Shown: positions 2,816-56,281, counted from the first letter of the stretch. The stretch: 64,000 bases of DNA from Acidobacteriota bacterium (GCA_032127265.1 JAQAZP010000279.1:1272-65271), one strand, 5' to 3'. Made by a program: numbers and translations. Notes: generated by a model from the letters alone, not told the origin.

Positions 2816-2967
2816 AGTGGTGTGCCTCCACCTCGATTCACGATATGAGCCGCGACTATATCACCACTTCCCTTCCGGTTAAATAGTCAATATATCTATT
2901 AGTTATATAGCCAATATACTTCCGGAAGGGAGGGATGCGGCAGCGACGGTCATCTTCCGTACAAAAA

Positions 2968-2997
2968 AATCGGGAGCGTTTGCTCCCGGGGCAGATT
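2968..2997 (-). terminator. Rho-independent terminator for the downstream porin gene (minus strand)
   Basis: On the minus strand the sequence reads cccgggagcaaacgctcccg followed by TTTTTTT. It lies about 120 nt past the stop of the 3117-4211 gene. Confidence 0.55.
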
Positions 2998-3116
2998 CAC
3001 TGAACGTGAATCCTGTCCGCGCCAGCCACCGGCGCCTCGAATGGGGACCGGTGCGTTTCACGAACTGTGAGAAAACCGCCGGCGCCTCAATGGGCGCCGA
3101 CGGTTTTGCTATTATC

Positions 3117-4211: not shown

Positions 4212-4394
4212 CTAACCGTTCTCCTTTTCTTTCGTGCGGGGCGCCACTGATGCCCCAGTGCCGACAATGATCAGACCGGTTCTCATGCGAGGCCGGAGGC
4301 GTCCATGCCTCAATCAATGCAGGCGGATTATGCGTTTGAAGTGTTAAGGTTTGATGAGTGAAAAGTATATGTTCAATAAACCGGATCCGCCGGA

Positions 4395-5321: not shown

Positions 5322-7543
5322 TCGGCATCCTCCTCCAGCACGGGCGGCGTCCGGTGCGGTTCCAGGGTTTCCTCGAAGAAACGGGTCAGGCGCTGGAAGA
5401 TGTGCAGGTGGGCGTGCTCTTCCCGCATGGAGTGATCCTTGTCGGGGCAGATGATCAGGTCATACCGCTTCCCTGCTTTATTGAACGCCTCCACCATCTT
5501 CGCCGTGTTGCGGAAATGGACGTTGTCGTCGGCGGTGCCGTGGGCCAGCAGGAGCCGTCCCTCGAGGTTCTTCGCGTGGTTCACCGGTGCCGTGACCTTG
5601 TACCCCCGCTCGTTTTCCACGGGCAGACCCATGTATCGTTCGGTGTAAATCGTATCGTATTCCCGCCAGTCGGTAACCGGCGCCACCGCCGCCCCGGCGG
5701 CAAAGACCCCGGGGGAGCGAAGCATGGCATTGAGGGCCATGGTGCCGCCGTAGCTCCAACCGTAGATCCCGATGCGCTGCGGGTCGACGTAGGGCAGCGA
5801 TTTCAGGTAGCGCACCCCGCAGAGCTGGTCCTCCAGCTCCTGTTCACCGAGGTGGCGATCCACTGCCCGTTCCCAGGCGGCGCCGCGCCGTGCCGATCCG
5901 CGGTTGTCCAGCCAGAAGACCACGAACCCCCGCTGGGCCAGCAGCTGCAGCCAGAGGCTGGTGGTGGACCGCCAGCCGTCCCTTACCACCTGGGCGTGGG
6001 GGCCGCCGTAGGTGTAGACCACTACCGGGTATTTACGTGAGCGTGTCATCCCCGGGGGGAGGAGCAGCGCCGCGGGCAGCCGGGTCCCGTCGCCGGCAAT
6101 GACCTCGACGAAATTCGGCTGGCGCAGGCGGTAGCGCCGCAGGTCCGCTCCCGCCCCCTCGTGGATGATCCCCAGCAGGGTGCCGTCGGAGCGGTGGAGG
6201 GTGAACCGCGGCGGGCGGTGAAAGGCCGAGTGCTCGTCCACGAAGGAGCGGCCGTGTGGGCTCATGGTGATGGTGTGCCACCCCGGGGCTCGAGTGATGC
6301 GGGTCAGGCCGCTGCCGTCCAGGCCTACCCGGTAGAGATGGCGTTCCAGAGGGGTCTCTTTGCTGGCGGTGAAGTAGATCTGCCCGGTGTCTTCGTCCAG
6401 TCCGGCGATCTCGTCCACCTGCCAGGCCCCGCTGGTCAGTTGCACCGGTTGTCCGCCTCTGCCGGGGTAGCGGTACAGGTGGCGCCAGCCGTCACGCTCC
6501 GAGCTCCAGATGAATCCGCCGCCCCGGAGAAAGCGGAGATCGTCGGCCAGGTTGACCCAGCTGGGGTTTGTTTCTTCCAGCAGCGCTTCCGTCTCCCCCT
6601 CGCCAATCGCCGCCACGGTCAGCAGCTCCAGCCGGCGCTGGTCACGGCTCAGCCGCTGGAGCACCAGGCGGCTGCCATCGGGCAGCCAGCCCAGGCGGGC
6701 CAGGTAGGATTCACCGTCAGCGCCGCGGCCCGGATCGATCCACCGGGTATCGCCATCAGACACATCCACCACCCCCACCTTCACCCGGGCATTGGGCTCC
6801 CCCGGCCGCGGGTAATACTGCATGGTGACCGAGGGGTCTGCCCCGGAATAGTTCATCAGCGGCCACTGCCGGACTCCGGCCTGGTCGAAGCGGTAGAAGA
6901 CGATTCGCCGGCTGTCCGGGGACCAGGAGAAACCGGAATCGAGATCAAGCTCCTCGACATGGACCCAGTCGGCGGCACCATTGATCACCGGCCCGCCGCC
7001 GTCACTGGTCAGTTGCCGCTCCTCACCGCCGGCGAGTTCCACCACGTGCAGGTTCTGACCGCGGACAAAACCCACCCGGGACGAATCCGGCGAGAACTGC
7101 GGGTCGCTTTCCTCACCGCCGCTGGTCAAACGCTGCCATCGATCCGACCCGGAGTCGAGGAGAAACAGTCCGCTGCCGGTCTCCACCAGCAGACGCTTGC
7201 TGTCGGGGGACCAGTGGTGGGCCGTGATCCCGGTCAGCAGATCCTGGTCAGTACCGCTGATCCCGGTGGGGGGGATGGTGGCGGCCAGTTTGTCCGGCTT
7301 GCCTGAGCCGAGGTTCATGGCCAGCAGACTGGTTTCCCCCCCCGCGTCAAGGAGGAAACTGACCGTTGTGCCGTCAGGTGACCACTGGAAATCAGAGGGA
7401 TCCGTGCCGCTCACCGGTTCCCCGCCAAAGATCGCCTCCACGGTGAGCCGTTCCCAGACCTGGGCCTGTCCGTCGGCCGTCAGGCCGGCGGGCAGCAGCA
7501 GGGCGATGATCAGGGGGAGCAGACTGGTCCAGCGGGTTCTCAT
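5318..7543 (-). CDS. S9 family serine peptidase (dipeptidyl-peptidase IV-like beta-propeller plus alpha/beta hydrolase domain), secreted
   Basis: Signal peptide MRTRWTSLLPLIIALLLPAGLTA, preceded on the minus strand by a strong RBS (GGAAGGAG). The catalytic GWSYGG nucleophile motif and C-terminal D...H residues are present (LAHGTADDNVHF). The N-terminal repeats resemble the DPP-IV propeller. The stop codon overlaps the murB start by 4 bp. Confidence 0.8.
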   Translation of the reverse strand: MRTRWTSLLPLIIALLLPAGLTADGQAQVWERLTVEAIFGGEPVSGTDPSDFQWSPDGTTVSFLLDAGGETSLLAMNLGSGKPDKLAATIPPTGISGTDQDLLTGITAHHWSPDSKRLLVETGSGLFLLDSGSDRWQRLTSGGEESDPQFSPDSSRVGFVRGQNLHVVELAGGEERQLTSDGGGPVINGAADWVHVEELDLDSGFSWSPDSRRIVFYRFDQAGVRQWPLMNYSGADPSVTMQYYPRPGEPNARVKVGVVDVSDGDTRWIDPGRGADGESYLARLGWLPDGSRLVLQRLSRDQRRLELLTVAAIGEGETEALLEETNPSWVNLADDLRFLRGGGFIWSSERDGWRHLYRYPGRGGQPVQLTSGAWQVDEIAGLDEDTGQIYFTASKETPLERHLYRVGLDGSGLTRITRAPGWHTITMSPHGRSFVDEHSAFHRPPRFTLHRSDGTLLGIIHEGAGADLRRYRLRQPNFVEVIAGDGTRLPAALLLPPGMTRSRKYPVVVYTYGGPHAQVVRDGWRSTTSLWLQLLAQRGFVVFWLDNRGSARRGAAWERAVDRHLGEQELEDQLCGVRYLKSLPYVDPQRIGIYGWSYGGTMALNAMLRSPGVFAAGAAVAPVTDWREYDTIYTERYMGLPVENERGYKVTAPVNHAKNLEGRLLLAHGTADDNVHFRNTAKMVEAFNKAGKRYDLIICPDKDHSMREEHAHLHIFQRLTRFFEETLEPHRTPPVLEEDAE

Positions 7544-7748
7544 GGGGCAAGGCTCCTTCCAAAGACCGTGGGGACGGCCACTGACAGTGGCAATCAAAGG
7601 CTACGATACTTTTTCGACTTCCCCTGGTCAACGAGCGCCGGCCGGCGGAGACCCGGTTGACAGTCCGCGGCGGCGGCGAATACCCTTTACTTTCGCCGAA
7701 CGGCGGTTCGGAAACACCTGTGCTCACGAAAATACCGGAGTTACTGAC

Positions 7749-10199
7749 ATGCGGAGAAGCATCGTATTTCGTTCATCGACTGGCCTGGCCATCCTGCTCA
7801 CTCTCCTCCTGCTGCCCGCCTGCGGCGCGCCGGAGGGCGATGAGCAGAAGCCCACCCCGGAAAGCATCGCCGCCGAAACCGCCCTGACGGTGACCGGCGG
7901 CCCTTCGGTGCTGCTGGTCACTGTGGATACCCTGCGTGCCGACCGGCTTTCCTGCTACGGTTTCACCGGTGGCTCCACCCGCTACATCGACGAGCTGGCA
8001 GCAGGGGGAGCGCTTTTCGAGGACGTTGTCACCCCGGTCCCGATCACCCTCCCCTCCCATGCCGCGATTCTCACCGGTCTCTACCCCGCCACACTGGGGG
8101 TGCACAACAACGGCACGTACCGCCTCGGCCAGCAGGCGGTGACCCTGGCCGAGCTGTTCGGGGAGGCCGGCTACCGGACGGGTGCTTTCGTCAGCGCCTA
8201 TGTCCTCGACTCGGTCTTTGGCCTGGACCAGGGGTTTGACGTATACAACGACAAGATGCCCGAGCGGCGCGGCACGGTGCTCACCGAGCGCCGGGCGGAC
8301 CTGGTGGTCAGCGCCGCGGTGAAATGGCTGGCCCAGAAGAGCCCCCAGCCCTTTTTCGCCTGGGTCCACATCTGGGATCCCCACTTTCCATATACGCCGC
8401 CGGAACCGATGAAGAGCAACTATCCCGACGATCCCTATTTCGGTGAAGTGGCCTTTGTGGACTCCCAGTTGGGCCTGCTGTTCAAGTCGCTGGAGGCGCT
8501 GGGGTTCAAAGGGGAAAACCTGTTGGTGGCGGTCACTGCCGATCATGGCGAAGGCCTGGGCGAGCACGACGAGACGAGCCACGGGGTCTTCATTTACGAC
8601 AGCACCGTGCAGGTGCCGCTGCTGATGCGGATGGGCGGGAGGATCGATGCCGGCCAGCGGATCCCCCACATGGTGCGGACCCTCGACATCGCCCCCACTC
8701 TGCTCGACCTGGTGGGGCTCAATGTGCCCGATGGTATGGAAGGCATGTCGCTGGCCCCGCTGATGACTGCTCCGGGCGCTGCGGAAGAACCGGCAGAGGA
8801 CCCCGGCCTCAGTTGTTACCTCGAGTCGGTGTACGGCCAGGAAAACTACGGCTGGAGCCCGCTTTACGGCATTCGTACCGGGCAGGCGAAGTATATCCGT
8901 GCCCCGGAGCCGGAGTTCTACCGTCTCGATCAGGACCGGGACGAGTTGGACAACCGCTGTACCGCCGAACCGGACGCTGCCGCCGGACTGGCGGCTTCCT
9001 TCGAGGCGCTCGCCGGACAGCTGGCGGGCGGGGAGTCCCTGGCTGACCAGGACTGGTCGCCTGCCGAGGGAGTGAAAGCGAGACTGGAGCTGCTCGGCTA
9101 CCTCTGGGCGCAGCCGCCGAGCAGAGAAGGATCTGCTGAAGACGGTGCGGGTGTCGATCCCAAGACCATGGTCAAGTGGGACGCCCGGCGTGAGGAAGGT
9201 CTGAAACTGGTGCGGCAGGGCAGTTGGGACGAGGGTTTGAAGATCCTGCGGGAGGTGGCCGCGGGAGACCCGGCCAACCCCATGGTCTGGGAGAACATCA
9301 CCGAGGGTGAGATGGCCCGCCGCAACCAGGCCGCGGCGCTGGCCGCGGCCGAACGCGGTTTGGCCCTTCGTCCCCGCAACCCCAACCTCAACATCTTCAA
9401 GGCAACCCTGTTGATCCAGCTGGGCCGGACGGAGGAGGCAGTGCGCCATCTCCAGGGACAGCTGGAAAGCCACCCGGACACGGCCGCGATCCACTACCAT
9501 CTCGGCGGCGCGCTCTCCGCTGCCGGCCGGCGGGAGGAGGCACTGGCCCACTACACCGAGGCGGAGAAGCTGGGCATGCGCAACCCCATGGTGCCGTTCC
9601 AGAGGGGGATGGCCCTGTTCCAGAGCGGGCGTTACGGGGAGGCGGTGGAGGCGTTTCGCGAGGTGGTGCAGTTCAAACCCGACTTTGCCGAAGCCTGGCT
9701 CAACATCGGTGTGAACAGTTTTCGCCTGAATCGTTACGAGGAGGCCAACGAGGCCTATGCCCGGGCCATTGAGCTGGACCCGGACAACGCCTTGTTCCGG
9801 TCCACCTACGGCTACTTCCTCACCCAGACCGGCCAGACCGCCGAGGCGCTGCGGCAGCTGGAGCGGTCCCTGGAAATCGACCCTGAGTTCGTCTGGGCGC
9901 ACACCAACCTGGCCTGGTACTACTGCATGGGCGGCTCGCAGGCCCTCAACCCGGACAAAGCCCTTCACCACTCGAAGAAGGCGTTGGCGCTCTCCGGCCC
10001 CAACCCGCCGGAAAATATTCTCAACACCCGTGCCGAGGCGCTCAGCGCCGCCGGCAAGTATGAAGAGGCGATGGCGCTCAATGCACGGTTGAAGGCCGCC
10101 TATCCGGATAATCCCTACTACGACATGCAGGCCAAGAGGTTCGAGAGCAGCTGGTTCCTCGATGAGAACCGCCGGAGGGCGGAGGAGAAGAAGCCCTAG
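7749..10199 (+). CDS. Lipoprotein with N-terminal sulfatase / alkaline-phosphatase-superfamily domain fused to C-terminal TPR repeats
   Basis: Lipobox at LLLLPACG. Sulfatase N-terminal signature LLVTVDTLRADRLSCYG, later DHGEGLGEH. The C-terminal ~350 aa carry repeated TPR-like A/L/Y/E-rich helices (AWLNIGV..YEEANEAYARAIELDP etc.). The ORF-track start at 7197 is an in-frame upstream extension with no signal peptide; the ATG at 7749 gives a clean lipoprotein N-terminus. Confidence 0.75.
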   Translation: MRRSIVFRSSTGLAILLTLLLLPACGAPEGDEQKPTPESIAAETALTVTGGPSVLLVTVDTLRADRLSCYGFTGGSTRYIDELAAGGALFEDVVTPVPITLPSHAAILTGLYPATLGVHNNGTYRLGQQAVTLAELFGEAGYRTGAFVSAYVLDSVFGLDQGFDVYNDKMPERRGTVLTERRADLVVSAAVKWLAQKSPQPFFAWVHIWDPHFPYTPPEPMKSNYPDDPYFGEVAFVDSQLGLLFKSLEALGFKGENLLVAVTADHGEGLGEHDETSHGVFIYDSTVQVPLLMRMGGRIDAGQRIPHMVRTLDIAPTLLDLVGLNVPDGMEGMSLAPLMTAPGAAEEPAEDPGLSCYLESVYGQENYGWSPLYGIRTGQAKYIRAPEPEFYRLDQDRDELDNRCTAEPDAAAGLAASFEALAGQLAGGESLADQDWSPAEGVKARLELLGYLWAQPPSREGSAEDGAGVDPKTMVKWDARREEGLKLVRQGSWDEGLKILREVAAGDPANPMVWENITEGEMARRNQAAALAAAERGLALRPRNPNLNIFKATLLIQLGRTEEAVRHLQGQLESHPDTAAIHYHLGGALSAAGRREEALAHYTEAEKLGMRNPMVPFQRGMALFQSGRYGEAVEAFREVVQFKPDFAEAWLNIGVNSFRLNRYEEANEAYARAIELDPDNALFRSTYGYFLTQTGQTAEALRQLERSLEIDPEFVWAHTNLAWYYCMGGSQALNPDKALHHSKKALALSGPNPPENILNTRAEALSAAGKYEEAMALNARLKAAYPDNPYYDMQAKRFESSWFLDENRRRAEEKKP

Positions 10200-10208
10200 C
10201 CAGGAATC

Positions 10209-13200
10209 TCACTTCTCTCTTTCCAGCAGGGCGGAGAAGAGGTCGGTGACCGGTACTCCGGGGAGTTGTCCTCGCTCCCTCCCGCCGGCCGTCTCGATCA
10301 GCCGCTGGATTTCCGTGCCGTCACGGCAGGAGGGGCAGCCGCTGACCAGTCGGTCCACCGGGCTCCGTTTCACGGCCCGCAGCAGTTCGGCCGCCACCTC
10401 GGTGCCGATGCGGGGGCGAAAGAGCCGAGCCGAACCGGAGAGCCCGCAGCAGTCGGTGAAACTGGCCATCGCGCCGTAGGCCGAGTTGAGCAGCGCTTCC
10501 TGGGCCGCGGTGGCCGCGGCCGTGTTGTGGCAGGGGACCTTGAGCCCGGGCCGGCCCTGGCTTCTCAGGTCGGGCAGCCGTGCGGAGCCGCCGATCAGCG
10601 CTTCGGCGGCCGGTTCGGCCGCGTCCCGCACCCGGATCACCCCCACGGCGCCTCCCGCCTCCTCCAGCAGGCCGGCCACCGGCTCCCACTGCTGCTTCTC
10701 CTGGACATAGCCTTCCACCAGCTCCCGGTAGCCGTGGTCCTGGTCGTAGCGGCGGGCAATCTCGCGAATCTCCTCCTGACAGGTGGGGCAATTGGAGAAG
10801 ACGGTCAGCGGCAGGGCCGCACCGCGCCGGCGCAGCCGGGCCGCGGCGATCAGCAGTTCGGCCAGGGTGCGGCCGCTGACCCGGGCTTCGGACTCCAGGT
10901 CCATGTTGGCCCGCCAGGGGAAGCCGCAGCAGAGATCGGCCTCCAGGTCGGCGAAGGAGATGCCGGCCATCCCGCACAGCACCCGGTCGGCGGCGAGACT
11001 GGCTCCGCCCCGGGCCAGAGAGTCCATGCAGCCGCGGAAGCGGATCAGGGCCGGGGCGCCATCAACCGCACCCTCGGGGCCCAGCACCAGGAAGTTGTCC
11101 CCCTCGTGGATCCTCGTTCCACTGACTGCGGGGGAATACCGGCGGATGCGGAACGGCGGCAGCGAGATGTAGGTCTTGAACCAGGCGGGCAGCGGCATTG
11201 AACGGAGCAGTGCGTTCAGCGGTTGGCCCAACCGCTGCAGCAGCGCCGCCGCGGTGTAGAGCGAGCCGCGCAGGGGGTGCTCGTCGAGCATCAGGTCATA
11301 GAGCAGGCCGGCGGCCGGATTTTTGCGCGGCCGCTCGCCGGCCCCGGCCAGACCGCGCCAGGCGGCCACCAGGGGATGGAGGTCGATCTCCGCCGGACAG
11401 ACCTGGTCACAGCGCCGGCAATAGAAGCACTTGGCCAGCCGCGGGTCGGTTTCCAGCAGCGGGGCGGCCAGTTCGTGGGGCAGTCCGTCCGGTGAGGAGA
11501 AGTCCGCGCCGCCGCTGACACCGAGGAAGCAAAGCTTCTCCAGGATCAGCAGCAGGTCGCGCTTGGCCGGCAGCAGGCCCCGGTGAAAGAGAACAGGGGT
11601 GAGGCCCCGTCTTCCCCTTTCCGCCGCCCGGCGGCGGATCCGGGCCTCGGCATCGATCACCGGGCAGACCTTGCAGGCATTGCAGCGGGTGCAGTTTTTG
11701 GCCTCGTTCAGGGCATGGGCCGCTGGTGATCCTGCGGGCACTGCGCCGGCCACCAACTCGTGAGAGTGGGCCAGCAGGCGCGCGTGCACCTGGCGGGAGA
11801 TTCTCGAGCGGAGAAAGATGGTCATCGGGTTGAACATCCCCGACGGGTCGATGGCGTCTTTCACGGCGGCGATGCGCTGGAACTCGTTCTCCGAGATGTG
11901 GCCGAGAAAGAGCAGTGGCGCCTTGCCGGCCAGGCCGTGCTCGCCGGTGAACGCGGCCCGGGGATTCCCCTGCTCATCGGGTGAGCAGAGTTCGATCATT
12001 TTTTCGGTGAGCAGGCTCCAGGCGGCAGCGGCTTCGGCCTCGTCGTAGATGTCGAACCCGCCAATGTTCCAGTGCAGGATCGCCGATTCGGGCGGGTCGA
12101 GGTGCGCGAAGAGGATCGAGGAGAGTTGCGGAATCGTGCGGTCCAGACCGGTGAGCAAGGCCGCCGCCGCTTCGAGCTGGTCCAGGCGGATTTCCGGGTC
12201 GGTTTTGCACTTGGTGCGCAGCAGGGTAGGCAGTTTCTCCCGGGGGGCCTTGAGCGCTTCGGCCTCGGGGCAGCGCTCCCCGGCCCGCCGGAGGGGCGAG
12301 ATGGAGACGCGGGCCGCACCATCTCTAGCCAGGGCGGCCAGCCGGTCTGCCTGCCGGTCCACCTCCTGCTCCGTTTCCCCCTCCAGGTCGAGAAGCACAT
12401 ACGCTTCGTCGCCGGGTCGGAGCTGGTCCGGGAAGCGGTCCAGCAGGAGGTCCTTGATGGCCCGGCTGGTGACGATTTCGAAGAAGGGCGGCTGTTCTTG
12501 GGCGGGCCGCGACTTCACCGCACGGACAAAGGTCATGGCCTCTCCGGCCGTGGTGAAGTTGAAGGCGGCCGTGCACGCCCGGGCCGGCTGCCGGTCGAGG
12601 AGCAGGGTCAGTTCGCTGATCAAGCCCGTGCACCCCTCGGCGCCCACGAAGAGGCTCATCGGCAGGAACGGCATGCCCACGCCTGACCCGCCTCCGGCGG
12701 CCCGCCTCAATGCGTCCAGATCATCGGGCCCCACTCCCCAGAATTTGGTGGTGGCCATGAACGGGGTGCGGGGCAGAAGAAGAAGCTCCCGGTCGGAGGG
12801 AGCGAAGCGCATGCTGGCCCCGCCGTGGATCACGGCCCGCCCCTCCAGCACTACCTCCTGGATCCGCTTCCCGGCGTGGGATCCGGTGCCGGCGATGCCG
12901 CCCACCGAAGCGCGAGGGGTGTTGGGGCGGCAACGGAGCACCAGACCCGCCTGCTCGGCGGTATCGATCACATCGAGCCAGGCGGCGCCGGCGCCGGCGG
13001 TGAGCTTCATCCGCCCCGGGCCGAAACGCCGCTCTTCATCTGCTTGCAGCGGCCGCGGCTCACCGATGAGGTTCATCCCCTTCAACGAAACGGTGAGCGC
13101 TCCGGCCATGGGCACCACACCCATGTTGTACCCGCCGCCATCGCCGTAGGGGATCAGCGGGACGGCCAGGCCGGTGGCCAGACGGACCAGTTCGACCAGC

Positions 13201-46723: not shown

Positions 46724-47992
46724 ATGAGCTCAAATCAAGACACAAACGACACCCCGGGGACGATCAGCCCTGACCAGGCCAACAGCCTCTGGCAGCGCCT
46801 GCTCGGCGGCCACCGCGAGGAGATAAAACCGGAGCACAACATCTGGGCGCACTTTCTGCCCGAAGGGTGCCGGCGCTGCCTGCTGGGTGGCCGGCTTTGC
46901 CTCACCATCGGCGAAAAGTGCCACAAGGACTGTTTCTACTGTTCGAACCCCATGGGTACCGACCTGACCCGGGCCGACGAGTTCACCATCAACAGCGACG
47001 AGGACCTGTTCCGGCTGATCCGCTTCAGTGATCCGGACGCGGTTTGCCTCACCGGCGGTGAGCCGACGCTGTACATGGACCGGGCCGAGCACTACGCCCG
47101 GCTGCTCCGCGAGGAATGCGGCCCGGATTTCCACATCCAGTTCTTCACCGCCAACGCCGACATGACCGAGGACCAGATGACCCGGATGCACGGGGCCGGG
47201 GTGGACGAGATCCGCTGCCACCTCGCCTCGTACAAGGAAGCTCGCCTGGTGGAGCGGGCCAGGGGGTATGACTGGACGGTGGCGGTGGAGATCCCCAGCC
47301 TGCCCATCGCCGACATCACCGACCGGATCGTGGACAAGGCCATCGAGCTGGGCGCCGAATTCGTCAATCTGCACGAGCTGCTCTATTTCGACCACGAGGA
47401 TTTCCAGCGGGTGGCCAAACGGACCGACCTCCAGCCTGGGGAGCCGCTGAGCCGCAAGATCCCCTACCCGACGGCACCGGAAAAGGTGTTCGGGACCGAC
47501 ATCCCGGCCCGCTTCGGCACCACTCTGCGCCCCACCCTGGGCAGCAAGGAAAAAGCCCAGGCCATGATGCGCAAGACCCTGGAGACCCCGGGGAGTAAAA
47601 CCGCGGTTCACTTCTGCAGCATGGCCAGCAAGTATCTGACCCAGATCCCCAACCGGCTGGCCCGCAAGGCGCGCCGCCTCAGGCGCCCTTACGAGGACGT
47701 CTCCCCTGACGGCACCCTGGTCTCGGCCATCATCCGCACCCCGGACGAGCAGACACTGGCCCTGGTCAAGGAACGACTGGCCACCCTGTTCCAGGTGGAG
47801 GGCGACAAGGTGCAGCAGGGGGACAACCTGCTGATGGTCCCTTGGACGGTGGCGCTGAAAAAAAGGCGCCTCGGCGATCTGGCCCAGCGGATGGAAATCA
47901 GCCTCTACGAACGATACCCGGTTCCCGGTGACGCGAAGATGAGTGACGACGGGATGTATATCATCTTCGCCCCCGGCCCCAACGCGGAGTGA
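46724..47992 (+). CDS. Radical SAM domain protein with additional N-terminal Cys cluster, function unknown
   Basis: CxxxCxxC in CHKDCFYCSNP, preceded by CRRCLLGGRLC. A glycine-rich LTGGEPTLY SAM-binding motif is present. Confidence 0.6.
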   Translation: MSSNQDTNDTPGTISPDQANSLWQRLLGGHREEIKPEHNIWAHFLPEGCRRCLLGGRLCLTIGEKCHKDCFYCSNPMGTDLTRADEFTINSDEDLFRLIRFSDPDAVCLTGGEPTLYMDRAEHYARLLREECGPDFHIQFFTANADMTEDQMTRMHGAGVDEIRCHLASYKEARLVERARGYDWTVAVEIPSLPIADITDRIVDKAIELGAEFVNLHELLYFDHEDFQRVAKRTDLQPGEPLSRKIPYPTAPEKVFGTDIPARFGTTLRPTLGSKEKAQAMMRKTLETPGSKTAVHFCSMASKYLTQIPNRLARKARRLRRPYEDVSPDGTLVSAIIRTPDEQTLALVKERLATLFQVEGDKVQQGDNLLMVPWTVALKKRRLGDLAQRMEISLYERYPVPGDAKMSDDGMYIIFAPGPNAE

Positions 47993-47995
47993 TCA

Positions 47996-50095
47996 ATGAA
48001 GAGTGAGACGATTTCCCTGGCCGGCACTGAAATTACCGTGGAAACTGGCGCCATCGCCCGGCAGGCCGACGCCGCGGTGATCGTGCGCCAGGGGGAAACC
48101 ATGATCCTGGCCACGGTGGTGGGGGCCCGCACCGCCCGCGAGGGGATCGATTTCTTCCCCCTCACCGTGGACTACCGCGAAGGCAAGTGGGCCGCGGGCA
48201 GGTTCCCCGGTGGTTTCCTCAAGCGGGAAGCCCGGTCCACCGACCACGAGGTCCTGACCTGCCGGCTGGCCGACCGCTCGATCCGCCCCCTCTTCCCCGA
48301 CGGCTACCGCAATGAAACCCAGGTCATCGTCACCACCCTGAGCTGCGCCCCGGACATCGATCCCTCGGTGCTGACCCTGATCGGAGTGCCCCTGGCCCTG
48401 CACATCTCGGACATCCCCTGGAACGGCCCGGCCGCCGGAATCCGGGTGGCCCGGGTGGACGGCAACCTGGTGGTCAACCCGCTGCAGAGCCAGCGGGCGC
48501 GGGCCGACCTGGAACTGGTGGTCACTTCCGGACCCGAAGGGCTCTCCATGGTGGAAGGTGAGGCCCGTGAGGTCCCCGAGGCGGAAGTGGCCCAGGCGCT
48601 CTTCTTCGCCCAGGACGCGGTGGCCCCGGCCCTGGAGCTGATGAACCGCTGGCGCGAGGAGTTGGGGCGGGAGAAGCGGGTCTTTGAGCGGCCGGCCGTG
48701 AACCAGGAACTGGCCGACGAACTGGAGAAGCTGGCCGCGGCCCGGCTCAGGGAAGCGGTCTGCACACCGGTGAAGCAGGAGCGGGGTCGGGCCGTGGAGC
48801 AGGTGCGCGAGGAGACGCTGGCCGCCCTCTGCCCCGACAACGACCCGCAACGCACCGCCGAGGCGGCCTCACTGTTCAGCGAGTTGCACCACCGGGTGGT
48901 GCGCCGGATGATCGCCCGGGAGGGCGTGCGGATCGACGGCAGACAGCTGGACCAGGTGCGGCCGATCAGCTGCCGGGTGGGCTGGCTGCCGCGGACCCAC
49001 GGCTCGGCCGTCTTCACCCGCGGCGAGACCCAGGCCCTGGTCATCGCCACCCTGGGCACCACCAGGGACCGGCAAGTGGTTGAGACGCTGTTCGGCGAGG
49101 AGCACCACAGTTTTCTGCTGCACTACAATTTTCCGCCGTACAGCGTGGGCGAGACCCGTCCGATCCGCGGGCCGGGACGGCGGGAGATCGGCCACGGCAA
49201 CCTGGCCCGCCGGGCGCTCCAACCGGTGTTGCCCGACGAAGACAGCTTCCCCTATGCCATCCGCGTGGTCTCCGAGATCAGCGAATCCAACGGCTCATCC
49301 TCCATGGCCTCGGTCTGCGGCGGCTGCCTGGCCCTGATGGACGCCGGAGTGCCGATCTCCAGTCCGGTGGCCGGCATCGCTATGGGACTGATCCAGGAGG
49401 ATGGCGAAATCCACGTGCTCACCGACATCCTCGGTGACGAGGACCACCTGGGCGACATGGACTTCAAGGTCACCGGCACCGAGGCCGGGGTCACCGCCCT
49501 GCAGATGGACAACAAGGTGGGCGGTCTGGACCGGACGATTCTGGACAAGGCGCTGACCCAGGCCCGCACCGCCCGGCTGCACATCCTGGCCGAGATGGCC
49601 AAGGCGCTGGCCGGCCCGCGGGAGCAGCTCTCGGACAACGCCCCGCGGGTGATGTCCCACCGGATCAACCCCGCGCGGATCAGGGACCTGATCGGCAAGG
49701 GGGGCAAGACGATTCAGGAGATCCAGGAGACCTACAAGGCCAAGATCGACATCTCCGACGACGGCCTGGTCCGGCTCTACGCCGCGGACGGCGTCCTGGG
49801 CAGCCAGGCCATGGCCAAGATCCGCCGGATCACCAACGACCCGGAGGTGGGCAAGGTCTACCGCGGCGAGGTGGTCTCGGTGAAGGATTTCGGCGCCTTT
49901 GTCAAAATCATGGACGGCACCGAGGGGCTGGTCCACATCTCCGAGCTGGACAAAGACCGGGTGGACCGTGCTTCCGATGTGGTTCACGAGGGGGAGAAAA
50001 TCCTGGTGCGGGTGCTGGGCGTGGACGACCGGGGCAAGCTGAAGCTCTCCCGCCGCGATGCCCTGGGGGTCAGCGAGGCCGAGGTAGAGGATTAG
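47996..50095 (+). CDS. pnp: Polyribonucleotide nucleotidyltransferase (PNPase)
   Basis: 699 aa. Two RNase PH-like domains (FFPLTVDYREGKWAAGRFPGGF; second core with GSSSMASVCGG). KH domain (GKGGKTIQEI) and C-terminal S1 domain (VYRGEVVSVKDFGAFV). Confidence 0.9.
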   Translation: MKSETISLAGTEITVETGAIARQADAAVIVRQGETMILATVVGARTAREGIDFFPLTVDYREGKWAAGRFPGGFLKREARSTDHEVLTCRLADRSIRPLFPDGYRNETQVIVTTLSCAPDIDPSVLTLIGVPLALHISDIPWNGPAAGIRVARVDGNLVVNPLQSQRARADLELVVTSGPEGLSMVEGEAREVPEAEVAQALFFAQDAVAPALELMNRWREELGREKRVFERPAVNQELADELEKLAAARLREAVCTPVKQERGRAVEQVREETLAALCPDNDPQRTAEAASLFSELHHRVVRRMIAREGVRIDGRQLDQVRPISCRVGWLPRTHGSAVFTRGETQALVIATLGTTRDRQVVETLFGEEHHSFLLHYNFPPYSVGETRPIRGPGRREIGHGNLARRALQPVLPDEDSFPYAIRVVSEISESNGSSSMASVCGGCLALMDAGVPISSPVAGIAMGLIQEDGEIHVLTDILGDEDHLGDMDFKVTGTEAGVTALQMDNKVGGLDRTILDKALTQARTARLHILAEMAKALAGPREQLSDNAPRVMSHRINPARIRDLIGKGGKTIQEIQETYKAKIDISDDGLVRLYAADGVLGSQAMAKIRRITNDPEVGKVYRGEVVSVKDFGAFVKIMDGTEGLVHISELDKDRVDRASDVVHEGEKILVRVLGVDDRGKLKLSRRDALGVSEAEVED

Positions 50096-50770: not shown

Positions 50771-50938
50771 TCCCCAAAACACTTCCCCCCGTTAGCGGGC
50801 AGGCATCAAGTATCTGTTGATCCCATACTGGGCCAGAAAATGATGCTAACGAAGTGGCTATCATCAGTTAACGTATTTTTTATCAGGCCATTAGAATCAT
50901 TCACATGAAGCCGAATAAACTAGCTGTTGATTTTTCCC

Positions 50939-50967
50939 TTGACACGGACGTCCCGAAAACATATAGT
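50939..50967 (+). promoter_or_regulatory. Consensus-like sigma-70 promoter TTGACA-N17-TATAGT
   Basis: Exact TTGACA, a 17-nt spacer (cggacgtcccgaaaaca), then TATAGT. It lies in an AT-rich island ~65 nt upstream of the 51034 gene, which has a GAAAGAG RBS. Confidence 0.5.
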
Positions 50968-51033
50968 AAATTCAGACCGAATGCTCGACCATGGTCCTCG
51001 TGTATCGAATACACACCAATTGCGAAAGAGTAC

Positions 51034-51714
51034 ATGAAACCAACCAGGCTCAATTTGATTTTATTGATCGTCGTCTGCACTGCGGCTGTTTTCGTCACCG
51101 CACCGTCCGTGGCCGACTCCATTGTCGATGATTCCGGGACGACCTGGACGGTGGTGCGGGACTTCAACAAGACCTCCGGCGGCTGGGATCTGCGACTGAT
51201 CGTCAATGGCGACGACGAGCGCTCCCTCTGGGTCACCGAGGACACCATCCTCGATCAGGACCCGGTGGTCGGTCTCGACCCCCTCTCCGGTAAGCCGGTG
51301 GTCTACTGGTCACGACAGGTGGGAACCGAATTCCGGATCTTCCGCTCGGCATTGGAGCGGGGAGTGTTCAGTGAACCGGCGGCCGTCACTGCCGGAGGAC
51401 TTGGCTTTTCCGACCGGCAGCCGTATGTGCAGTATGACCTTTTCGGTCAATGCCACCTGGTCTGGTACCGCCAGTGGACCGACGGCAGCGGGTTTGCGTT
51501 CTACGCCCGCTGCACCGGGGTTTCCTGGACCAGCGCGGAGCAGATCAGCATTTCTCTCGACAACGTGATCGGCACGGTGACCATCAGCGTCCCTGCGCAT
51601 GAGCACGATTTTCTCAGTGCCACGTACCAGTATTTCAGGTCGTCCACCGGTTCCACGGAAACTCGAGAAGTCTGCCGGGGCGGAGATACCAGTCCCTGGA
51701 GTGTCTGTCACTGA
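51034..51714 (+). CDS. Secreted protein of unknown function
   Basis: Signal peptide MKPTRLNLILLIVVCTAAVFVTAPSVA. The ORF-track upstream extension contains the promoter itself and so cannot be coding. Confidence 0.45.
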   Translation: MKPTRLNLILLIVVCTAAVFVTAPSVADSIVDDSGTTWTVVRDFNKTSGGWDLRLIVNGDDERSLWVTEDTILDQDPVVGLDPLSGKPVVYWSRQVGTEFRIFRSALERGVFSEPAAVTAGGLGFSDRQPYVQYDLFGQCHLVWYRQWTDGSGFAFYARCTGVSWTSAEQISISLDNVIGTVTISVPAHEHDFLSATYQYFRSSTGSTETREVCRGGDTSPWSVCH

Positions 51715-52128
51715 TCGTGGGAGCGAATCGAGGTTCGGAGAGTTACGACTAAAGTTGCATGGGACCCAGGGAACTACGGGGGATTATCCAAGGCAAGGCA
51801 ACCCGGCAATTCCCCTCTGGAATGGCTATCCGGGGTCCTGGGTCCCATACTTTTTGAAATACACTGCTTCAGGTGCGGCGAAGCTGCTGCAACCCGGCTT
51901 CGCCGCACCCCATTCCCCTTGACGTCCAAGTCAAGTGATGGTTCTCTACCAATATAGTCCCTGATCAACTCGCCGTAAAGTATCCGGAGCGCATTCAGCG
52001 CGTTTTTTTGTACCAGTCCAGGTTTCGGGACGCCGGCATCCCCTTGACTCCACGCCGAACCGGCCCGTAAGATGGCCGCCTGTCACGGCCCGGGATCGAG
52101 GTCCCGAAGCCCCAATGGACGGTCAGTT

Positions 52129-52815
52129 ATGGCGCATCCCGAACCATACATCACCCCGCAGACCCTGGAGGCCCGCGCCGATGCCTGGCACACCGAGCTG
52201 GCCCGGGAGGGGATCGGCCGGGACCCTGATGCGGCCCGGCCCGGCAAGAGCGCCCTGCTGGTGATCGACATGCAGCGGTTCTTCCTGCGGGAGGACTCCC
52301 ACGCCTTCCTCCCGGCCGGCCGCTGCATACTGCCCAATGTGCTGCGGCTGATCAGTGCCTGGCGGAGTGCCGGAGCGCCGGTGATCCTCACCCGCCACGC
52401 CGTGGCCGAGGGCGAGGACCCGGGGGCCATGGCCCGCTGGTGGCACGACTCAGTGCGCGAGGGCACGGAGGACGCACTGCTGGACCCCGAAATAGCCAAC
52501 GCCGCCGCCGGCGCCCCGGTGCTGCGCAAGACACGATACAGCGCTTTTCACGGCACCGGGCTGGAGGAGAGCCTCCGCGAACTGGGCGTGGAGCGGGTGG
52601 TGATCGCCGGGGTGATGACCCACCTCTGCGTGGAGAGTACGGCCCGCGAGGCCTTTATCCGCGATTTCGAGGTGCTGCTGGCCACCGACGCCAGCGCCTC
52701 GGCCAGCGAGGAGCTGCACCTGGGGTCTTTGCGGTCGCTGGGCCATGGCTTCGCCTTTCTTGCCCGGACCGACCAGTTGCTCGATCAACTGAACAGTGGG
52801 GGGCCCAATGATTGA
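52129..52815 (+). CDS. Isochorismatase-family cysteine hydrolase
   Basis: ALLVIDMQ (catalytic Asp), K...R, and VIAGVMTHLCVESTAR (catalytic Cys) motifs. The ATG at 52129 is chosen over the upstream ATG at 52072. Confidence 0.7.
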   Translation: MAHPEPYITPQTLEARADAWHTELAREGIGRDPDAARPGKSALLVIDMQRFFLREDSHAFLPAGRCILPNVLRLISAWRSAGAPVILTRHAVAEGEDPGAMARWWHDSVREGTEDALLDPEIANAAAGAPVLRKTRYSAFHGTGLEESLRELGVERVVIAGVMTHLCVESTAREAFIRDFEVLLATDASASASEELHLGSLRSLGHGFAFLARTDQLLDQLNSGGPND

Positions 52816-53719
52816 CCTGCTGGTGATCGGCGGAGGTCCGGCCGGGGTGGCCGGCGCGGTACATGCCCACCGTGCAGGACTGGAAACACTGCTGGTGGAT
52901 CGTGAACGGGTCGGCGGGCTGATCTGGAACGCCAACCTGGTGGAGAACCACCCCGGGCTGCCGCGGCCCATGGACGGGCCGGCGGTGGCCGCGCTGCTCC
53001 AGGGGCACCTGGATCGCAATGAGGTGCCGCGGTGGTATACGGAGATAACGACGCTGCGCCGCGAGGGCGGCCTCTTTCATGCCCAAGCCGGTTCGGACTG
53101 CATTGCGGCGCGGGCCGTGCTGTTGGCCACCGGGTCACGGCCGAAGCCCCTGATGCTGGAGGGTGCCGATGAGGTTCAGCGGTCGGGGCTGCTGCACTAC
53201 GAGGTGAGCCGCCTGCCGCGGCTCAGCGGATCGAGCACGGTTTTGATCGTGGGCGGCGGTGATGCCGCATTCGACTACGCGCTCAACTGTGCCCGGCAGG
53301 GGGCGCGGGCCACCATCCTGGTCCGGGGGGCGGCCCCGCGGAGTCTGCCGCTGCTCATCGAGCGCGCCGCGGCCATGCCATCCATCGAACTGCTCACCGG
53401 TGTCCAGCCGCTGCGCGTGTTCCAGGACCGCAGCGGCCGTGTCGGCCTGGACTGTCGGCAGGAGGGGGAGGCGGATGAGCGCCGGTTCACTGCCGACCTC
53501 CTGCTCGCCGCGGTGGGCCGCGACCCGGACGCTTCGCTGGCCGAAGGACTCGATCCGCTGTGCCCGGGTTGTTATGATGATGCCCCCGGCGGCAGCCCGG
53601 TGCTCTACCTGGCTGGTGACGCGGCCCACGGGCGTTTCAGGCAGATGTCCATCGCCGCCGGCGAGGGGGTGCTGGCCGTGATGCACGCGGCGGCCAGGTT
53701 GTGCGGCGACAGAGGTTGA
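52808..53719 (+). CDS. FAD/NAD(P)-binding pyridine-nucleotide-disulfide-type oxidoreductase (thioredoxin-reductase-like fold)
   Basis: Dinucleotide motif DLLVIGGGPAG and second motif VLIVGGGDAAFDYA. The start overlaps the upstream stop by 8 bp. Confidence 0.7.
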   Translation: MIDLLVIGGGPAGVAGAVHAHRAGLETLLVDRERVGGLIWNANLVENHPGLPRPMDGPAVAALLQGHLDRNEVPRWYTEITTLRREGGLFHAQAGSDCIAARAVLLATGSRPKPLMLEGADEVQRSGLLHYEVSRLPRLSGSSTVLIVGGGDAAFDYALNCARQGARATILVRGAAPRSLPLLIERAAAMPSIELLTGVQPLRVFQDRSGRVGLDCRQEGEADERRFTADLLLAAVGRDPDASLAEGLDPLCPGCYDDAPGGSPVLYLAGDAAHGRFRQMSIAAGEGVLAVMHAAARLCGDRG

Positions 53720-53721
53720 CC

Positions 53722-54708
53722 ATGATCGTGGAGAGAGAATTCGGCGATGACTCCCTGGCCCGGGTCTACGTGGCCCGGATGCGGGAGGATGATCCGTCCT
53801 CGCTGGTGGAGTTCGTCGAGTCACTCCAGCCGCCGCTGCCCCGGGAGCATAAGTGGGTGCTCATCGTCTCCTCGCTCTTCGGCTGTCCGGCGGGCTGCGG
53901 GATGTGCGATGCCGGCGGCGGATATCGCGGCCGGCTCACCGCCGACGAGATCCTGGAGCAGATCACGTTCATGGTCCGCCGCCGCTACCCCAGCTTGCGG
54001 GTGCCGGTGCCGCGGTTCAAGATCCAGTTCGCCCGTATGGGCGAACCGCTCTACAACCCGGCACTGCCCGAGGTGCTGGAGCGGCTGCCCGGCATCCTCG
54101 ACGCCCCGGGGCTTGAACCCTGCCTCTCCACCATCGCCCCCCGCAGCTGTGAACCGATGCTGGAGACCATCCGCGAAATCAAGGACCGGCTCTACCCCCG
54201 CGGGCGGTTCCAGATGCAGTTCTCGATCCACTCCACCGACGAAGCGGCCCGGGAGCGCCTGCTGCCGGTGCCCCGCTGGGACCTGGCCCGGATCGCTGAA
54301 TACGGGCGCCGTTTCCACCAGCCAGGAGACAAGAAGATCACCCTCAACTTCACCGTGATCGAGGGGATGCCCATCGATGCCGCGGTTCTCCGCCGACACT
54401 TCGACCCCCGGCGCTTCCTGGTCAAGCTGACCCCGCTCAACCCCACCGAGCGGGCGCTGACCAACGGCCTTCGCTCCGGCTTCGACCCCCGGGACCCGGA
54501 TGCCGCCGGACCGCTGGTCCGGACGCTGGGCCAGGAAGGGTTCAGGGTGATCCTCAGCATCGGCGAGTTGCGTGAAAACGCCATCGGCAGCAACTGCGGG
54601 CAGTTCGTCACCCGGCTGACCGCGGGCCGGGATCTGGTCAGCCGTCCGGCACTGTCCGGGGAAGCCTACACCGTACCGGCCGGGACCATGGGAGGGGGCG
54701 GGCAATGA
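53722..54708 (+). CDS. Radical SAM domain protein
   Basis: CxxxCxxC at SSLFGCPAGCGMCDAGG, plus an MGEPLYNP glycine-rich SAM motif. A GAGG RBS precedes the ATG, which overlaps the upstream stop. Confidence 0.6.
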   Translation: MIVEREFGDDSLARVYVARMREDDPSSLVEFVESLQPPLPREHKWVLIVSSLFGCPAGCGMCDAGGGYRGRLTADEILEQITFMVRRRYPSLRVPVPRFKIQFARMGEPLYNPALPEVLERLPGILDAPGLEPCLSTIAPRSCEPMLETIREIKDRLYPRGRFQMQFSIHSTDEAARERLLPVPRWDLARIAEYGRRFHQPGDKKITLNFTVIEGMPIDAAVLRRHFDPRRFLVKLTPLNPTERALTNGLRSGFDPRDPDAAGPLVRTLGQEGFRVILSIGELRENAIGSNCGQFVTRLTAGRDLVSRPALSGEAYTVPAGTMGGGGQ

Positions 54709-55715
54709 CCGACAAGGAGCGCACCCGCTGGCTGGAGTTTCTCGGTACCCTCAGCCTGGCCGACCTGCACCGACACATGGACGGCTCGATCCGTCCCTCC
54801 ACCCTCTGGGACCTCTCCGAACGCTACTACGAAGCCATCCCGGGCATGGACTTCCACGGCTTCCAGCGAATGCTGCACTACGATCCGAAGAAGGACAGCA
54901 CGCTGCTCGACTACCTGGACAAGTTCCACGTGCCGCTGCAGTACACCCAGTTCTACGGCAATATCCGCACCATCGCCTACGAGATCGCCGAGGACGCCTG
55001 GCACGAAGGGGTCCGGTTGCTGGAGTTGCGGGTCAACCCGCTGATCCACCGCCGGGCCGGCCTGACCACCCGCCAGATGATCAACGCCACTCTCGCCGGC
55101 CTGAAGGAGTTTGGCGAGCAGCAGCCGGAGATGAAACTGGGGCTGGTGATCATTGCCATGCGCAACCACGGCGGCAACATGGCCAAGATCCTGCTGCGGG
55201 AGATCGCCGGCGAGATGGAGCAGTATCACAGCGGCCCCGGAGTGGTGGGTTTCGACATCGCCGGGCCCGAGCGGCCCTTCCCGCCGATCCTCTTCACCGA
55301 CGCCTACGCTCTGGCAAAAAAAATGGGCCTCCGGCGCACGGTGCACGTGGGGGAGGCCGACGGGCCGGACAAGATCTGGCAGGCGGTGGAGCTGCTGGCG
55401 CCGGACCGCATCGGCCACGGGACCAGCGCCGGCAGGGACGAGGCCCTGCTCCGCCGGCTGGCCGAGGACGGGACCGTGGTGGAGTGCTGCCTCACTTCGA
55501 ACCTGCAGACCGGGGCGGTCTCCAGCCTCGACCAGCACCCTTTGCCGCTGTTCCTCGAATACGGCGTCCCCTGCACCCTCTGCACCGACAACACCACCGT
55601 GTCGGGCACCAGCATCACCAACGAGTACCTGCTGGCCATCGAGACCTTCAGCCTGGGTGAGGATGAAGTGCGGCATCTCGCCGCCACCGGCCTCTCCGGG
55701 ACATTCTGTGGATAA
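54705..55715 (+). CDS. Adenosine/adenine deaminase family amidohydrolase
   Basis: Metal-binding motifs LHRHMDGS, TVHVGE, RIGHG, CLTSN and C-terminal TLCTDNT. The last is a variant of the canonical SxNTDDP. The start overlaps the upstream stop (ATGA). Confidence 0.75.
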   Translation: MTDKERTRWLEFLGTLSLADLHRHMDGSIRPSTLWDLSERYYEAIPGMDFHGFQRMLHYDPKKDSTLLDYLDKFHVPLQYTQFYGNIRTIAYEIAEDAWHEGVRLLELRVNPLIHRRAGLTTRQMINATLAGLKEFGEQQPEMKLGLVIIAMRNHGGNMAKILLREIAGEMEQYHSGPGVVGFDIAGPERPFPPILFTDAYALAKKMGLRRTVHVGEADGPDKIWQAVELLAPDRIGHGTSAGRDEALLRRLAEDGTVVECCLTSNLQTGAVSSLDQHPLPLFLEYGVPCTLCTDNTTVSGTSITNEYLLAIETFSLGEDEVRHLAATGLSGTFCG

Positions 55716-55723
55716 TCTGGCGT

Positions 55724-56281
55724 CTACTTCCAGTGGCCCACCGTGCGGAACGGCTCGTAGCTCATGAAGTCGGCGTGGTGGACGATGCAGGCCTCGGTGG
55801 TGCGCACCACCTTGTCGCCTTCGCCGGCGTGAGCGGCGATGATGTGGCAGACCGCCTCGGGAACCCCGCACTCCATGGCCAGGGCCACGCCGGTGAAGGG
55901 GTGGCGCAGATACTTGCCGGTCATGCCCACCACCGACTTGCCGTCCTTCAGCTCGTACTCCAGCAGTTTGCCCACGTCGGCCAGGATCGCGCCGGCGATC
56001 ACGGTATCCATGTGGATCGGCAGGCTGTCGCCGAAGAAGGCGATCATCGCCTTTGCCGAGTCGCGGGAAATATGGACCACGCAGCGCTTGTGATCCATGA
56101 AGGAGGCCGGGCAGTCCTTGACCAGCAGAGTGAAGGGGATCTCTTTCAGGTCCTCGCCGGTGAGCGCGCTGCGCTCCAGGGCCAACTCCCAGGTGCGGGC
56201 GGTTTTCTCCCGCAGGTCTTCGTCCTCGATCCACTCAATCTCGGGCCACAGCTCCAGGAGTTCCTTGTTCATGGTGCTCAT
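55724..56281 (-). CDS. HD-domain protein (metal-dependent phosphohydrolase family)
   Basis: H...HD signature region (CVVHISRDSAKA...; AAHAGEGD...VHHADFMS). Convergent with the deaminase operon. Confidence 0.55.
   Translation of the reverse strand: MSTMNKELLELWPEIEWIEDEDLREKTARTWELALERSALTGEDLKEIPFTLLVKDCPASFMDHKRCVVHISRDSAKAMIAFFGDSLPIHMDTVIAGAILADVGKLLEYELKDGKSVVGMTGKYLRHPFTGVALAMECGVPEAVCHIIAAHAGEGDKVVRTTEACIVHHADFMSYEPFRTVGHWK

Follow-up and report, generated by a model that had tools for sequence, protein, structure and literature searches.

Here, we describe a conserved trio of genes found in a 64,000-nucleotide stretch of the genome of an Acidobacteriota bacterium (GCA_032127265.1, JAQAZP010000279.1:1272-65271; hereafter the window), which encodes, in this order, an isochorismatase-family cysteine hydrolase, a predicted flavoprotein of the thioredoxin reductase (TrxR) fold and a predicted radical S-adenosylmethionine (SAM) enzyme of the RlmN/Cfr fold. 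That these proteins constitute a three-component radical SAM system, which would convert a putative nucleobase-like substrate, has in our view about an even chance of being correct; the comparative and structural statements on the trio are made with high confidence. The fold and the single domains are familiar. New are the obligate organisation in three components and the cysteine pattern of the radical SAM enzyme, in which only one of the two catalytic cysteines of RlmN is kept. The initial annotation of this locus had focused on an adenosine-deaminase-family gene and an HD-domain gene located downstream. These turned out to be its least special parts, and the likeness to RlmN, the loss of the counterpart of RlmN Cys118 and the trio as the true conserved unit were overlooked. 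The object of interest in this study is the trio rather than the two genes downstream of it.

The conservation of the locus was assessed in a one-genome-per-species scan with the radical SAM protein, which gave 567 confirmed matches, i.e., stretches encoding a relative. For the best 80 of these, all six-frame open reading frames (ORFs) were searched with the five proteins encoded in this part of the window. These 80 loci all derive from metagenome-assembled genomes (MAGs) and belong to Thermoplasmata, Heimdallarchaeota, Planctomycetota, Chloroflexota/Anaerolineae, Zixibacteria, Cloacimonadota, Acidobacteriota, Myxococcota and bacteria of the candidate phyla radiation (CPR), the latter including a 962-kb Gracilibacteria chromosome. 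By strict counting, the flavoprotein gene immediately precedes the radical SAM gene in 69 of the 72 assessable loci; with a distance of up to 350 bp allowed, it does so in 71 of them. In the single exception, the Peribacteria MAG L079, it adjoins the hydrolase gene at a distance of 2.9 kb from the radical SAM gene. This trio (2595-7870) is split into a hydrolase and flavoprotein pair (2595-4073) and the radical SAM gene (6980-7870), and the gap holds two genes on the opposite strand, both encoding proteins with a type IV prepilin-like motif at the N-terminus (GFTLLEIILA, GFTLIELVLA). The hydrolase gene directly precedes the flavoprotein gene in 48 of 66 loci and is found within a few kb in three more.

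The closest metagenomic relatives, sharing 88% (L001) and 77% (L002) identity, encode the hydrolase, the flavoprotein, the radical SAM protein and also the deaminase with the same ATGA coupling, and distant archaeal and bacterial metagenomic contigs carry the trio only. Conservation of the gene neighbourhood, which the initial annotation had named as a check, was found for the first three genes and not for the deaminase and HD genes, each of which occurs in only one of the 80 loci. Clustering of the ORFs over 88 loci revealed no further widely conserved neighbour but only lineage-restricted ones, namely a UbiE-type methyltransferase (15 loci), an iron-dependent alcohol dehydrogenase (Fe-ADH; nine loci) and a CooC/MinD-like ATPase (nine loci). 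No functional clue was seen in the gene contexts of the CPR and Heimdallarchaeota loci, and a search of plasmids returned a single match at just 25% identity. Among the loci without the hydrolase, no replacement candidate was consistent across loci. Genes following the radical SAM gene immediately in such loci encode a nitroreductase (L035, 7943-8521) or a class 3 O-methyltransferase (L051, 7905-8594; L067, 7991-8593), which may represent alternative partners.

Covalent fusions give further hints on how the three proteins are related. Hydrolase and flavoprotein are joined in a single ORF of 558 aa in L060, the flavoprotein is fused to the radical SAM protein in L021 (631 aa), P0243, P0257 and P0282, and fusions of the radical SAM protein with the hydrolase were found in P0268, P0275, P0277, P0288 and P0305. 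Since all three pairwise combinations occur, the three proteins are expected to work together. A joint function is strongly indicated by these fusions, and the trio probably forms a complex.

The radical SAM protein has more than 5000 homologues and shares 55-60% identity with proteins of Thermoplasmata, Methanomassiliicoccales and Altiarchaeales; the mean column identity in an alignment of 23 sequences amounts to 67%. It scores 25 bits against the Pfam model Radical_SAM, which is below the cut-off of 29.5, and its sole named relatives in NCBIfam are RlmN and Cfr, albeit at 45 versus 290 bits for TIGR00048 and 33-35 versus 530-550 bits for the Cfr models. Profile alignment with E. coli RlmN (hhalign) matched residues 39-302 to residues 108-364 at a probability of 98%. 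Moreover, an AlphaFold2 model (mean predicted local distance difference test, pLDDT, of 86) found its best Foldseek matches in the RlmN structures 6fz6 and 3rfa (E-values from 1e-16 to 1e-12, template modelling score 0.66), with the next radical SAM folds, spore photoproduct lyase among them, following at an E-value of about 1e-5. The cluster motif C55-x3-C59-x2-C62 is invariant and aligns with the cluster cysteines of RlmN; as stated in the initial annotation, this is a small standalone protein with a CxxxCxxC motif (CPAGCGMC). Based on the alignments and the model, the protein is predicted to be a SAM-binding [4Fe-4S] protein of the RlmN/Cfr fold, with the cluster bound at CxxxCxxC.

In RlmN, Cys355 is the methyl-carrying residue and Cys118 resolves the covalent enzyme-RNA intermediate. 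Cys292 of the window protein, located in the loop IGSNCGQ, aligns with Cys355 in IDAACGQ, and this loop (G[ST]NCG[QM]) is kept in 195 of 199 family members. In place of Cys118, which precedes the cluster motif by seven residues, the window protein has Ile48, and isoleucine, methionine, leucine or valine is found there throughout the family, with a cysteine in none of the 199 members. Any cysteine within the 15 residues preceding the cluster is present in only three members, at position -4. In the set of 80 loci, three were flagged for such an upstream cysteine. Two CPR members, L073 (6986-7891) and L079 (6980-7870), have it at this distance of four residues from the cluster motif (ISCLFGC and ISCLVGC, respectively), and this position differs from that of Cys118. 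About 69 N-terminal residues of RlmN, including the accessory RNA-binding domain, have no counterpart either. By its alignment, the enzyme hence misses a catalytic feature that defines RlmN, and as Cys118 is missing, the label "23S rRNA (adenine2503-C2)-methyltransferase" given by the Joint Genome Institute (JGI) is not acceptable. RlmN and Cfr are class A radical SAM methyltransferases, which modify C2 or C8 of the adenines A2503 in 23S rRNA and A37 in tRNA. What the family shares with RlmN and Cfr are the fold, the CxxxCxxC site, the GEP, SxH and NP motifs and the C-terminal cysteine of "CGQ". It differs in the absence of Cys118 and of the N-terminal domain, in an identity of just 23% and scores far below the cut-offs, in its constant association with the flavoprotein and usual association with the hydrolase, and in being common in archaea. 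The trio's radical SAM clade also lies outside the scope of the 2009 Cfr/RlmN survey, since this survey found the family to be essentially absent from archaea (Kaminska et al., 2009; PMC2836569).

The flavoprotein matches Pyr_redox_2 (88 bits) as well as Pyr_redox_3 and Pyr_redox, and reaches 123 versus 343 bits for the thioredoxin reductase model TIGR01292. Its motifs GGGPAG and GGGDAAFDYA are conserved, leaving the binding motifs for flavin adenine dinucleotide (FAD) and NAD(P)H intact. The redox-active centre C136-A-T-C139 of E. coli TrxB, however, reads V/I-x-P/D-L/I in 40 of 40 sequences, and no conserved cysteine pair exists among 74 orthologues. In sequence comparisons, the protein is nearer to genuine thioredoxin reductases, its best relatives of solved structure (E-value 6e-26), than to TrxR-type ferredoxin-NADP reductases (E-value 1e-10). 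It is thus predicted to be an FAD/NAD(P)H enzyme of the TrxR fold in which the redox disulfide has been lost. With TrxB, it shares the two-Rossmann architecture for FAD and NAD(P)H and the GxGxxG and VENxPGF motifs; unlike TrxB, it lacks the CATC centre, scores below the TIGR01292 cut-off and is genetically tied to a radical SAM enzyme. The same kind of CxxC-less architecture is found in other disulfide-less TrxR-type flavoproteins, i.e., the ferredoxin-NADP reductases and YpdA/Bdr.

The hydrolase clearly belongs to the isochorismatase family, with a score of 150 bits against a PF00857 cut-off of 27. Asp47, Lys134 and Cys167 are invariant in 47 orthologues, as is the motif THLCxE[ST]TAR, and because of this invariant triad the enzyme is placed with the amidase-type members of the family. 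None of the NCBIfam equivalogs was reached (PRK11440, 66 versus 195 bits; RutB, 55 versus 378 bits), and the protein remains far under the cut-offs of the characterised members RutB, BiuH, PncA, YcaC and YecD. RutB, YecD, BiuH, N-carbamoylsarcosine amidase and PncA have the PF00857 domain and the Asp-Lys-Cys triad in common with the trio hydrolase, which differs from them by an N-terminal extension. In contrast, the vinyl-ether hydrolases EntB and PhzD are devoid of the catalytic cysteine that the trio hydrolase possesses.

How could these three proteins act together? The radical SAM enzyme would not be an rRNA or tRNA 2-methyladenosine methyltransferase, but would probably act on a nucleobase-, nucleoside- or cofactor-like N-heterocycle. 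The flavoprotein could serve as its dedicated donor of electrons or hydride from NAD(P)H, conceivably either by reducing the cluster or by replacing the two electrons which RlmN takes from Cys118-Cys355. For Cys292, two roles are conceivable: in a C-methylation, it might hold the methyl or methylene group, like its RlmN counterpart, or it might donate a hydrogen in a non-methylating cleavage. A dedicated flavoprotein would then be of use for the reductive release of a Cys-CH2-substrate adduct or for re-reduction after radical cleavage, and the hydrolase, acting ahead of the radical step or following it, could take an amide or carbamoyl group off substrate or product. Non-methylating radical chemistry comes close to an even chance in our assessment, and methyl transfer is considered possible though somewhat doubtful. 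It is a tentative and rather unlikely proposal that the flavoprotein specifically substitutes for Cys118. We are equally hesitant about the fuller scenario, in which, in uncultivated anaerobic archaea and bacteria, an RlmN-fold enzyme gave up its resolving cysteine, came to rely on an NAD(P)H flavoprotein for turnover and is complemented by an amidohydrolase that finishes the conversion of a metabolite.

Several observations weigh against a three-component system acting on a small molecule. The hydrolase gene is not near the radical SAM gene in about a quarter of the loci. No riboswitch, regulator or further conserved neighbour was found that could serve as a clue to the substrate, and no Rfam family was detected in the window or in 20 related loci, nor in the leader when permissive settings were used. 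The median isoelectric point of the family (6.1) is compatible with a macromolecular substrate and indecisive on RNA binding, and the mean column identity of the radical SAM enzyme could point to a universal macromolecular target. Furthermore, the deaminase gene may share a transcript with the trio and yet be functionally independent of it, and the role of the flavoprotein, be it the replacement of Cys118 or the reduction of the cluster, is one that we purely infer.

A further lead on the type of substrate came from distant relatives, which were collected by a profile search of 1.84 billion representatives and by tblastn against phage genomes. A more distant clade, sharing 25-35% identity with the trio clade, also lacks Cys118 and keeps the loop cysteine. 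It includes phage copies with 27-35% identity to the window protein (phrog_24834), which are stand-alone RlmN-fold radical SAM proteins, have no cysteine at the Cys118 position and retain the cysteine of the C-terminal CG[QN] motif. The copy of the Moorella phage MTATph1 (OR602862.1; L092, 3836-4798), which is annotated as two ORFs with the cysteine loop in the second, is encoded next to genes for thymidylate synthase and UvsX, and a second copy is that of the Bacteroides phage Versailles (ON453897.1; L093, 3833-4840). The phage genes are part of modules for replication and nucleotide metabolism, and their neighbours encode thymidylate synthase, UvsX, a helicase, a ParB-like protein and a Holliday-junction resolvase, and other distant members are found in mobile-element-like contexts of gut Firmicutes.

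Two members of this distant clade are fused to the transporter QueT, which imports queuosine precursors. P0353 is a fusion of QueT with the radical SAM protein, and P0371, encoded by a stand-alone chromosomal gene of a Bacilli MAG (JAKSUV010000004.1; L098, 6001-8445), comprises QueT, the radical SAM protein and a methylthioadenosine/S-adenosylhomocysteine (MTA/SAH) nucleosidase in 814 aa, with a nucleosidase domain score of 224 bits against a cut-off of 169. P0371 may therefore be a self-contained unit for substrate import, conversion and by-product clearing. By analogy, these fusions suggest that RlmN-fold enzymes without Cys118 might act on nucleobase-type small molecules, and that they might profit from a prompt removal of 5'-deoxyadenosine and SAH. 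P0371 may also be related to the radical SAM queuine lyase QueL of Clostridioides difficile (CD1684), whose gene is located next to that of the S-component of an energy-coupling factor (ECF) transporter (PMC11130926). Compared by description, QueL and the trio enzyme are both small stand-alone radical SAM enzymes with a nucleobase as substrate (QueL) or putative substrate (trio family); QueL, however, has QueK and an ECF transporter as its partners in place of flavoprotein and hydrolase (PMC11130926).

The first of the other explanations that we weighed is a QueL-like, non-methylating radical lyase, with the trio salvaging or degrading a 7-deazapurine or a related modified nucleobase: the radical SAM enzyme would cleave a C-N or C-C bond, the hydrolase would remove an amide and the flavoprotein would reduce an intermediate. 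Besides the QueT fusions of distant members without Cys118, alone or together with the nucleosidase, and the precedent of QueL beside its ECF S-component gene, the single active-site cysteine would fit the role of a hydrogen donor, as in spore photoproduct lyase. Nevertheless, no que, tgt or QueT genes were found near the trio in the examined contigs and loci, homologues of the QueT-fused protein reside in phage or mobile-element contexts and not beside queK or qrtT, and the trio clade is just about 25-35% identical to the QueT-fused clade, so that we rate this explanation as improbable, though as the strongest of the alternatives. The initial annotation had taken the four codirectional genes for a single pathway that modifies or salvages a nucleoside or cofactor, with the variant deaminase as a specialised enzyme integral to it. 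All four products could indeed act on adenine-type compounds, and the ATGA overlap of the radical SAM and deaminase genes is kept in L001, L002 and L009. Yet the deaminase is missing from 79 of the 80 species-level loci, deaminase relatives with 73% and 64% identity (L089, L090) stand alone among unrelated genes, and the unusual TDN motif is a trait of the deaminase subfamily, which leaves a pathway of four obligatory steps quite improbable. From this earlier proposal, the description as a non-textbook operon stood and a small-molecule or nucleobase-type pathway is still the most plausible class; the four-gene unit did not hold.

The view that the radical SAM gene encodes a divergent RlmN/Cfr adenine C-methyltransferase for rRNA or tRNA with incidental neighbours draws on the name that JGI gives to many members, on RlmN being the top match by sequence and fold and on the conserved equivalent of Cys355. 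It is very improbable in the light of the low score (45 against 290 bits), the complete absence of a Cys118 equivalent (0 of 199), the missing N-terminal domain, the obligate adjacency and the fusions to flavoprotein and hydrolase, and the wide distribution of the trio family in archaea, where Cfr/RlmN proteins were reported to be essentially absent (PMC2836569). Finally, hydrolase and flavoprotein could have a function of their own, e.g., amide catabolism and a redox reaction, and be linked to the radical SAM gene by shared horizontal transfer only. Both the lack of the hydrolase in about a quarter of the loci and the much lower conservation of the partners compared to the radical SAM enzyme would fit, but three kinds of covalent fusion in independent lineages and an adjacency that is kept in both archaea and bacteria, where no further neighbour is conserved, render this explanation the least credible of all. 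The three-component system composed of hydrolase, flavoprotein and radical SAM enzyme is the reading that we prefer.

The deaminase encoded downstream of the trio exceeds the TIGR01430 cut-off (236.8 versus 216.55), and its zinc ligands and catalytic Glu, His and Asp align with those of Salmonella Add (6n9m) in the motifs HRHMDG, HVGE, GHG and TD. Its likeness to an ordinary Add thus extends to the curated cut-off and the active-site residues, with the difference that the second Asp of TDD is an Asn. The motif TLCTDNT, correctly noticed in the initial annotation, is not specific to this operon, since CTDN[PT] is common to 113 of the 120 closest homologues; by these alignments, TDN is a trait of a large and otherwise stand-alone Add subfamily, which as a whole differs from Add in this respect. 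In mouse adenosine deaminase, the second Asp hydrogen-bonds N7 of the purine, and as the amide of an Asn is able to do likewise, the exchange is regarded as conservative. Coupling of the deaminase gene to the trio occurs in L001, L002 and L009 only. As L009, a 90%-identical relative, is the single one of the 80 species-level genomes with this coupling, the co-conservation of four genes expected in the initial annotation was not found. Recruitment of the deaminase gene took place in a single narrow clade, whose radical SAM proteins are at least 77% identical. There, the enzyme would most likely deaminate by-products of SAM cleavage (5'-deoxyadenosine, SAH) or an adenine-bearing product. The nucleosidase fusion in the distant relative P0371 suggests, as indirect support by analogy, that such a deaminase might dispose of 5'-deoxyadenosine, an alternative which the initial annotation had raised. 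A PADLOC analysis of the locus gave no defence match except a generic one of the deaminase to a CARF-ADA model, and a defence system was discarded as a reading.

The convergent HD gene is a syntenic neighbour unrelated to the trio. A homologue is found only in L001 and L009, at a distance of about 3 kb, and neither in L002 nor in the other 79 genomes. In L001, a gene for an IS110-family transposase (10092-11480) is located between the deaminase and HD genes, the stop codons of which (55715 and 55724) are separated by 8 bp in the window.

The features of the locus are summarised in Table 1. All five ORFs given in the initial annotation, four on the forward strand and the HD gene facing them, were confirmed, and the protein classes proposed there were borne out by profile searches in Pfam and NCBIfam.

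Table 1. Position and assignment of the genes and the promoter-like site in the window.
Feature	Position	Strand	Remarks
Isochorismatase-family cysteine hydrolase, 228 aa	52129..52815	+	First gene of trio; PF00857, 150 bits
Predicted TrxR-fold FAD/NAD(P)H flavoprotein without redox-active CxxC, 303 aa	52808..53719	+	Pyr_redox_2, 88 bits
Predicted RlmN/Cfr-fold radical SAM enzyme, 328 aa	53722..54708	+	hhalign, AlphaFold2 model and Foldseek
Adenosine-deaminase-family enzyme, "CTDN" subfamily, 336 aa	54705..55715	+	TIGR01430, 236.8; A_deaminase, 240 bits
HD/HDIG-domain protein, 185 aa, convergent	55724..56281	-	PF01966, 25.3 bits; TIGR00277, 29.9 bits
Promoter-like site TTGACT, 18 nt, TAAGAT	52044..52073	+	Sigma-70-like consensus match only

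The promoter-like site precedes the first gene by about 55 nt, and three such sites were counted compared to 0.4 expected from shuffled sequences. Because of its position, the start codon ATG at 52129 is favoured over the ATG at 52072, and this start agrees with the 228-aa orthologue in L001. The ATG of the flavoprotein gene (52808) is placed 8 nt inside the hydrolase gene, which stops at 52813-52815, and the radical SAM and deaminase genes share their stop and start in a common ATGA (54705-54708). These two overlaps had been described in the initial annotation together with a third at 53719/53722, which is in fact a 2-nt gap: the flavoprotein stop codon (53717-53719) is followed by "CC" and the radical SAM ATG at 53722. 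An alternative GTG start at 53701 would give an overlap of the radical SAM gene with the flavoprotein gene. Shine-Dalgarno-like purine runs precede every start. Tight gene packing by itself is frequent in compact high-GC genomes; it is not the packing that goes beyond chance but the fact that distant genomes have the first three genes in common.

The flanks of the locus consist of ordinary chromosomal genes encoding polynucleotide phosphorylase (PNPase), a DUF2058 protein, a GDSL lipase, a Tag glycosylase, a Glu/Leu dehydrogenase and RecD2. The window also holds another radical SAM gene, unrelated to that of the trio (46724-47992, forward strand; 422 aa, Radical_SAM and Fer4_12). It stops 4 nt short of the PNPase gene (47996-50095), and this pair is kept in L001 and not in L002. 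Moreover, the segment 50001-52000 has a GC content of 0.58 compared to about 0.65 elsewhere. It contains, just upstream of the operon, an ORF (50905-51714, 269 aa) without a Pfam match, which has counterparts at the same position in L001 and L002, likewise without Pfam matches.

Models for the trio were found neither in Pfam (2025) and NCBIfam (June 2026) nor in PADLOC, and our literature search yielded no paper describing it. Public pipelines label the members as rRNA methyltransferase or "radical SAM protein", which amounts to a systematic annotation error or gap for a trio that is widespread in uncultivated archaea and bacteria and includes a radical SAM family with thousands of members. 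To our knowledge, no enzymes of this fold and mechanism other than RlmN and Cfr have been characterised, and each of these two requires a pair of cysteines. With one of these cysteines kept, the other lost and a firm linkage to a flavoprotein and a hydrolase, the trio would represent either a new way of completing a methyl transfer of the RlmN type or another radical reaction carried out on the RlmN scaffold. As the trio is present in the reduced genomes of CPR bacteria and also in Asgard archaea, it may have a basic role in salvage or repair that metabolic maps do not yet show. If the fuller scenario outlined above is true, class A radical SAM chemistry would be extended from RNA to metabolites, with a new redox solution.

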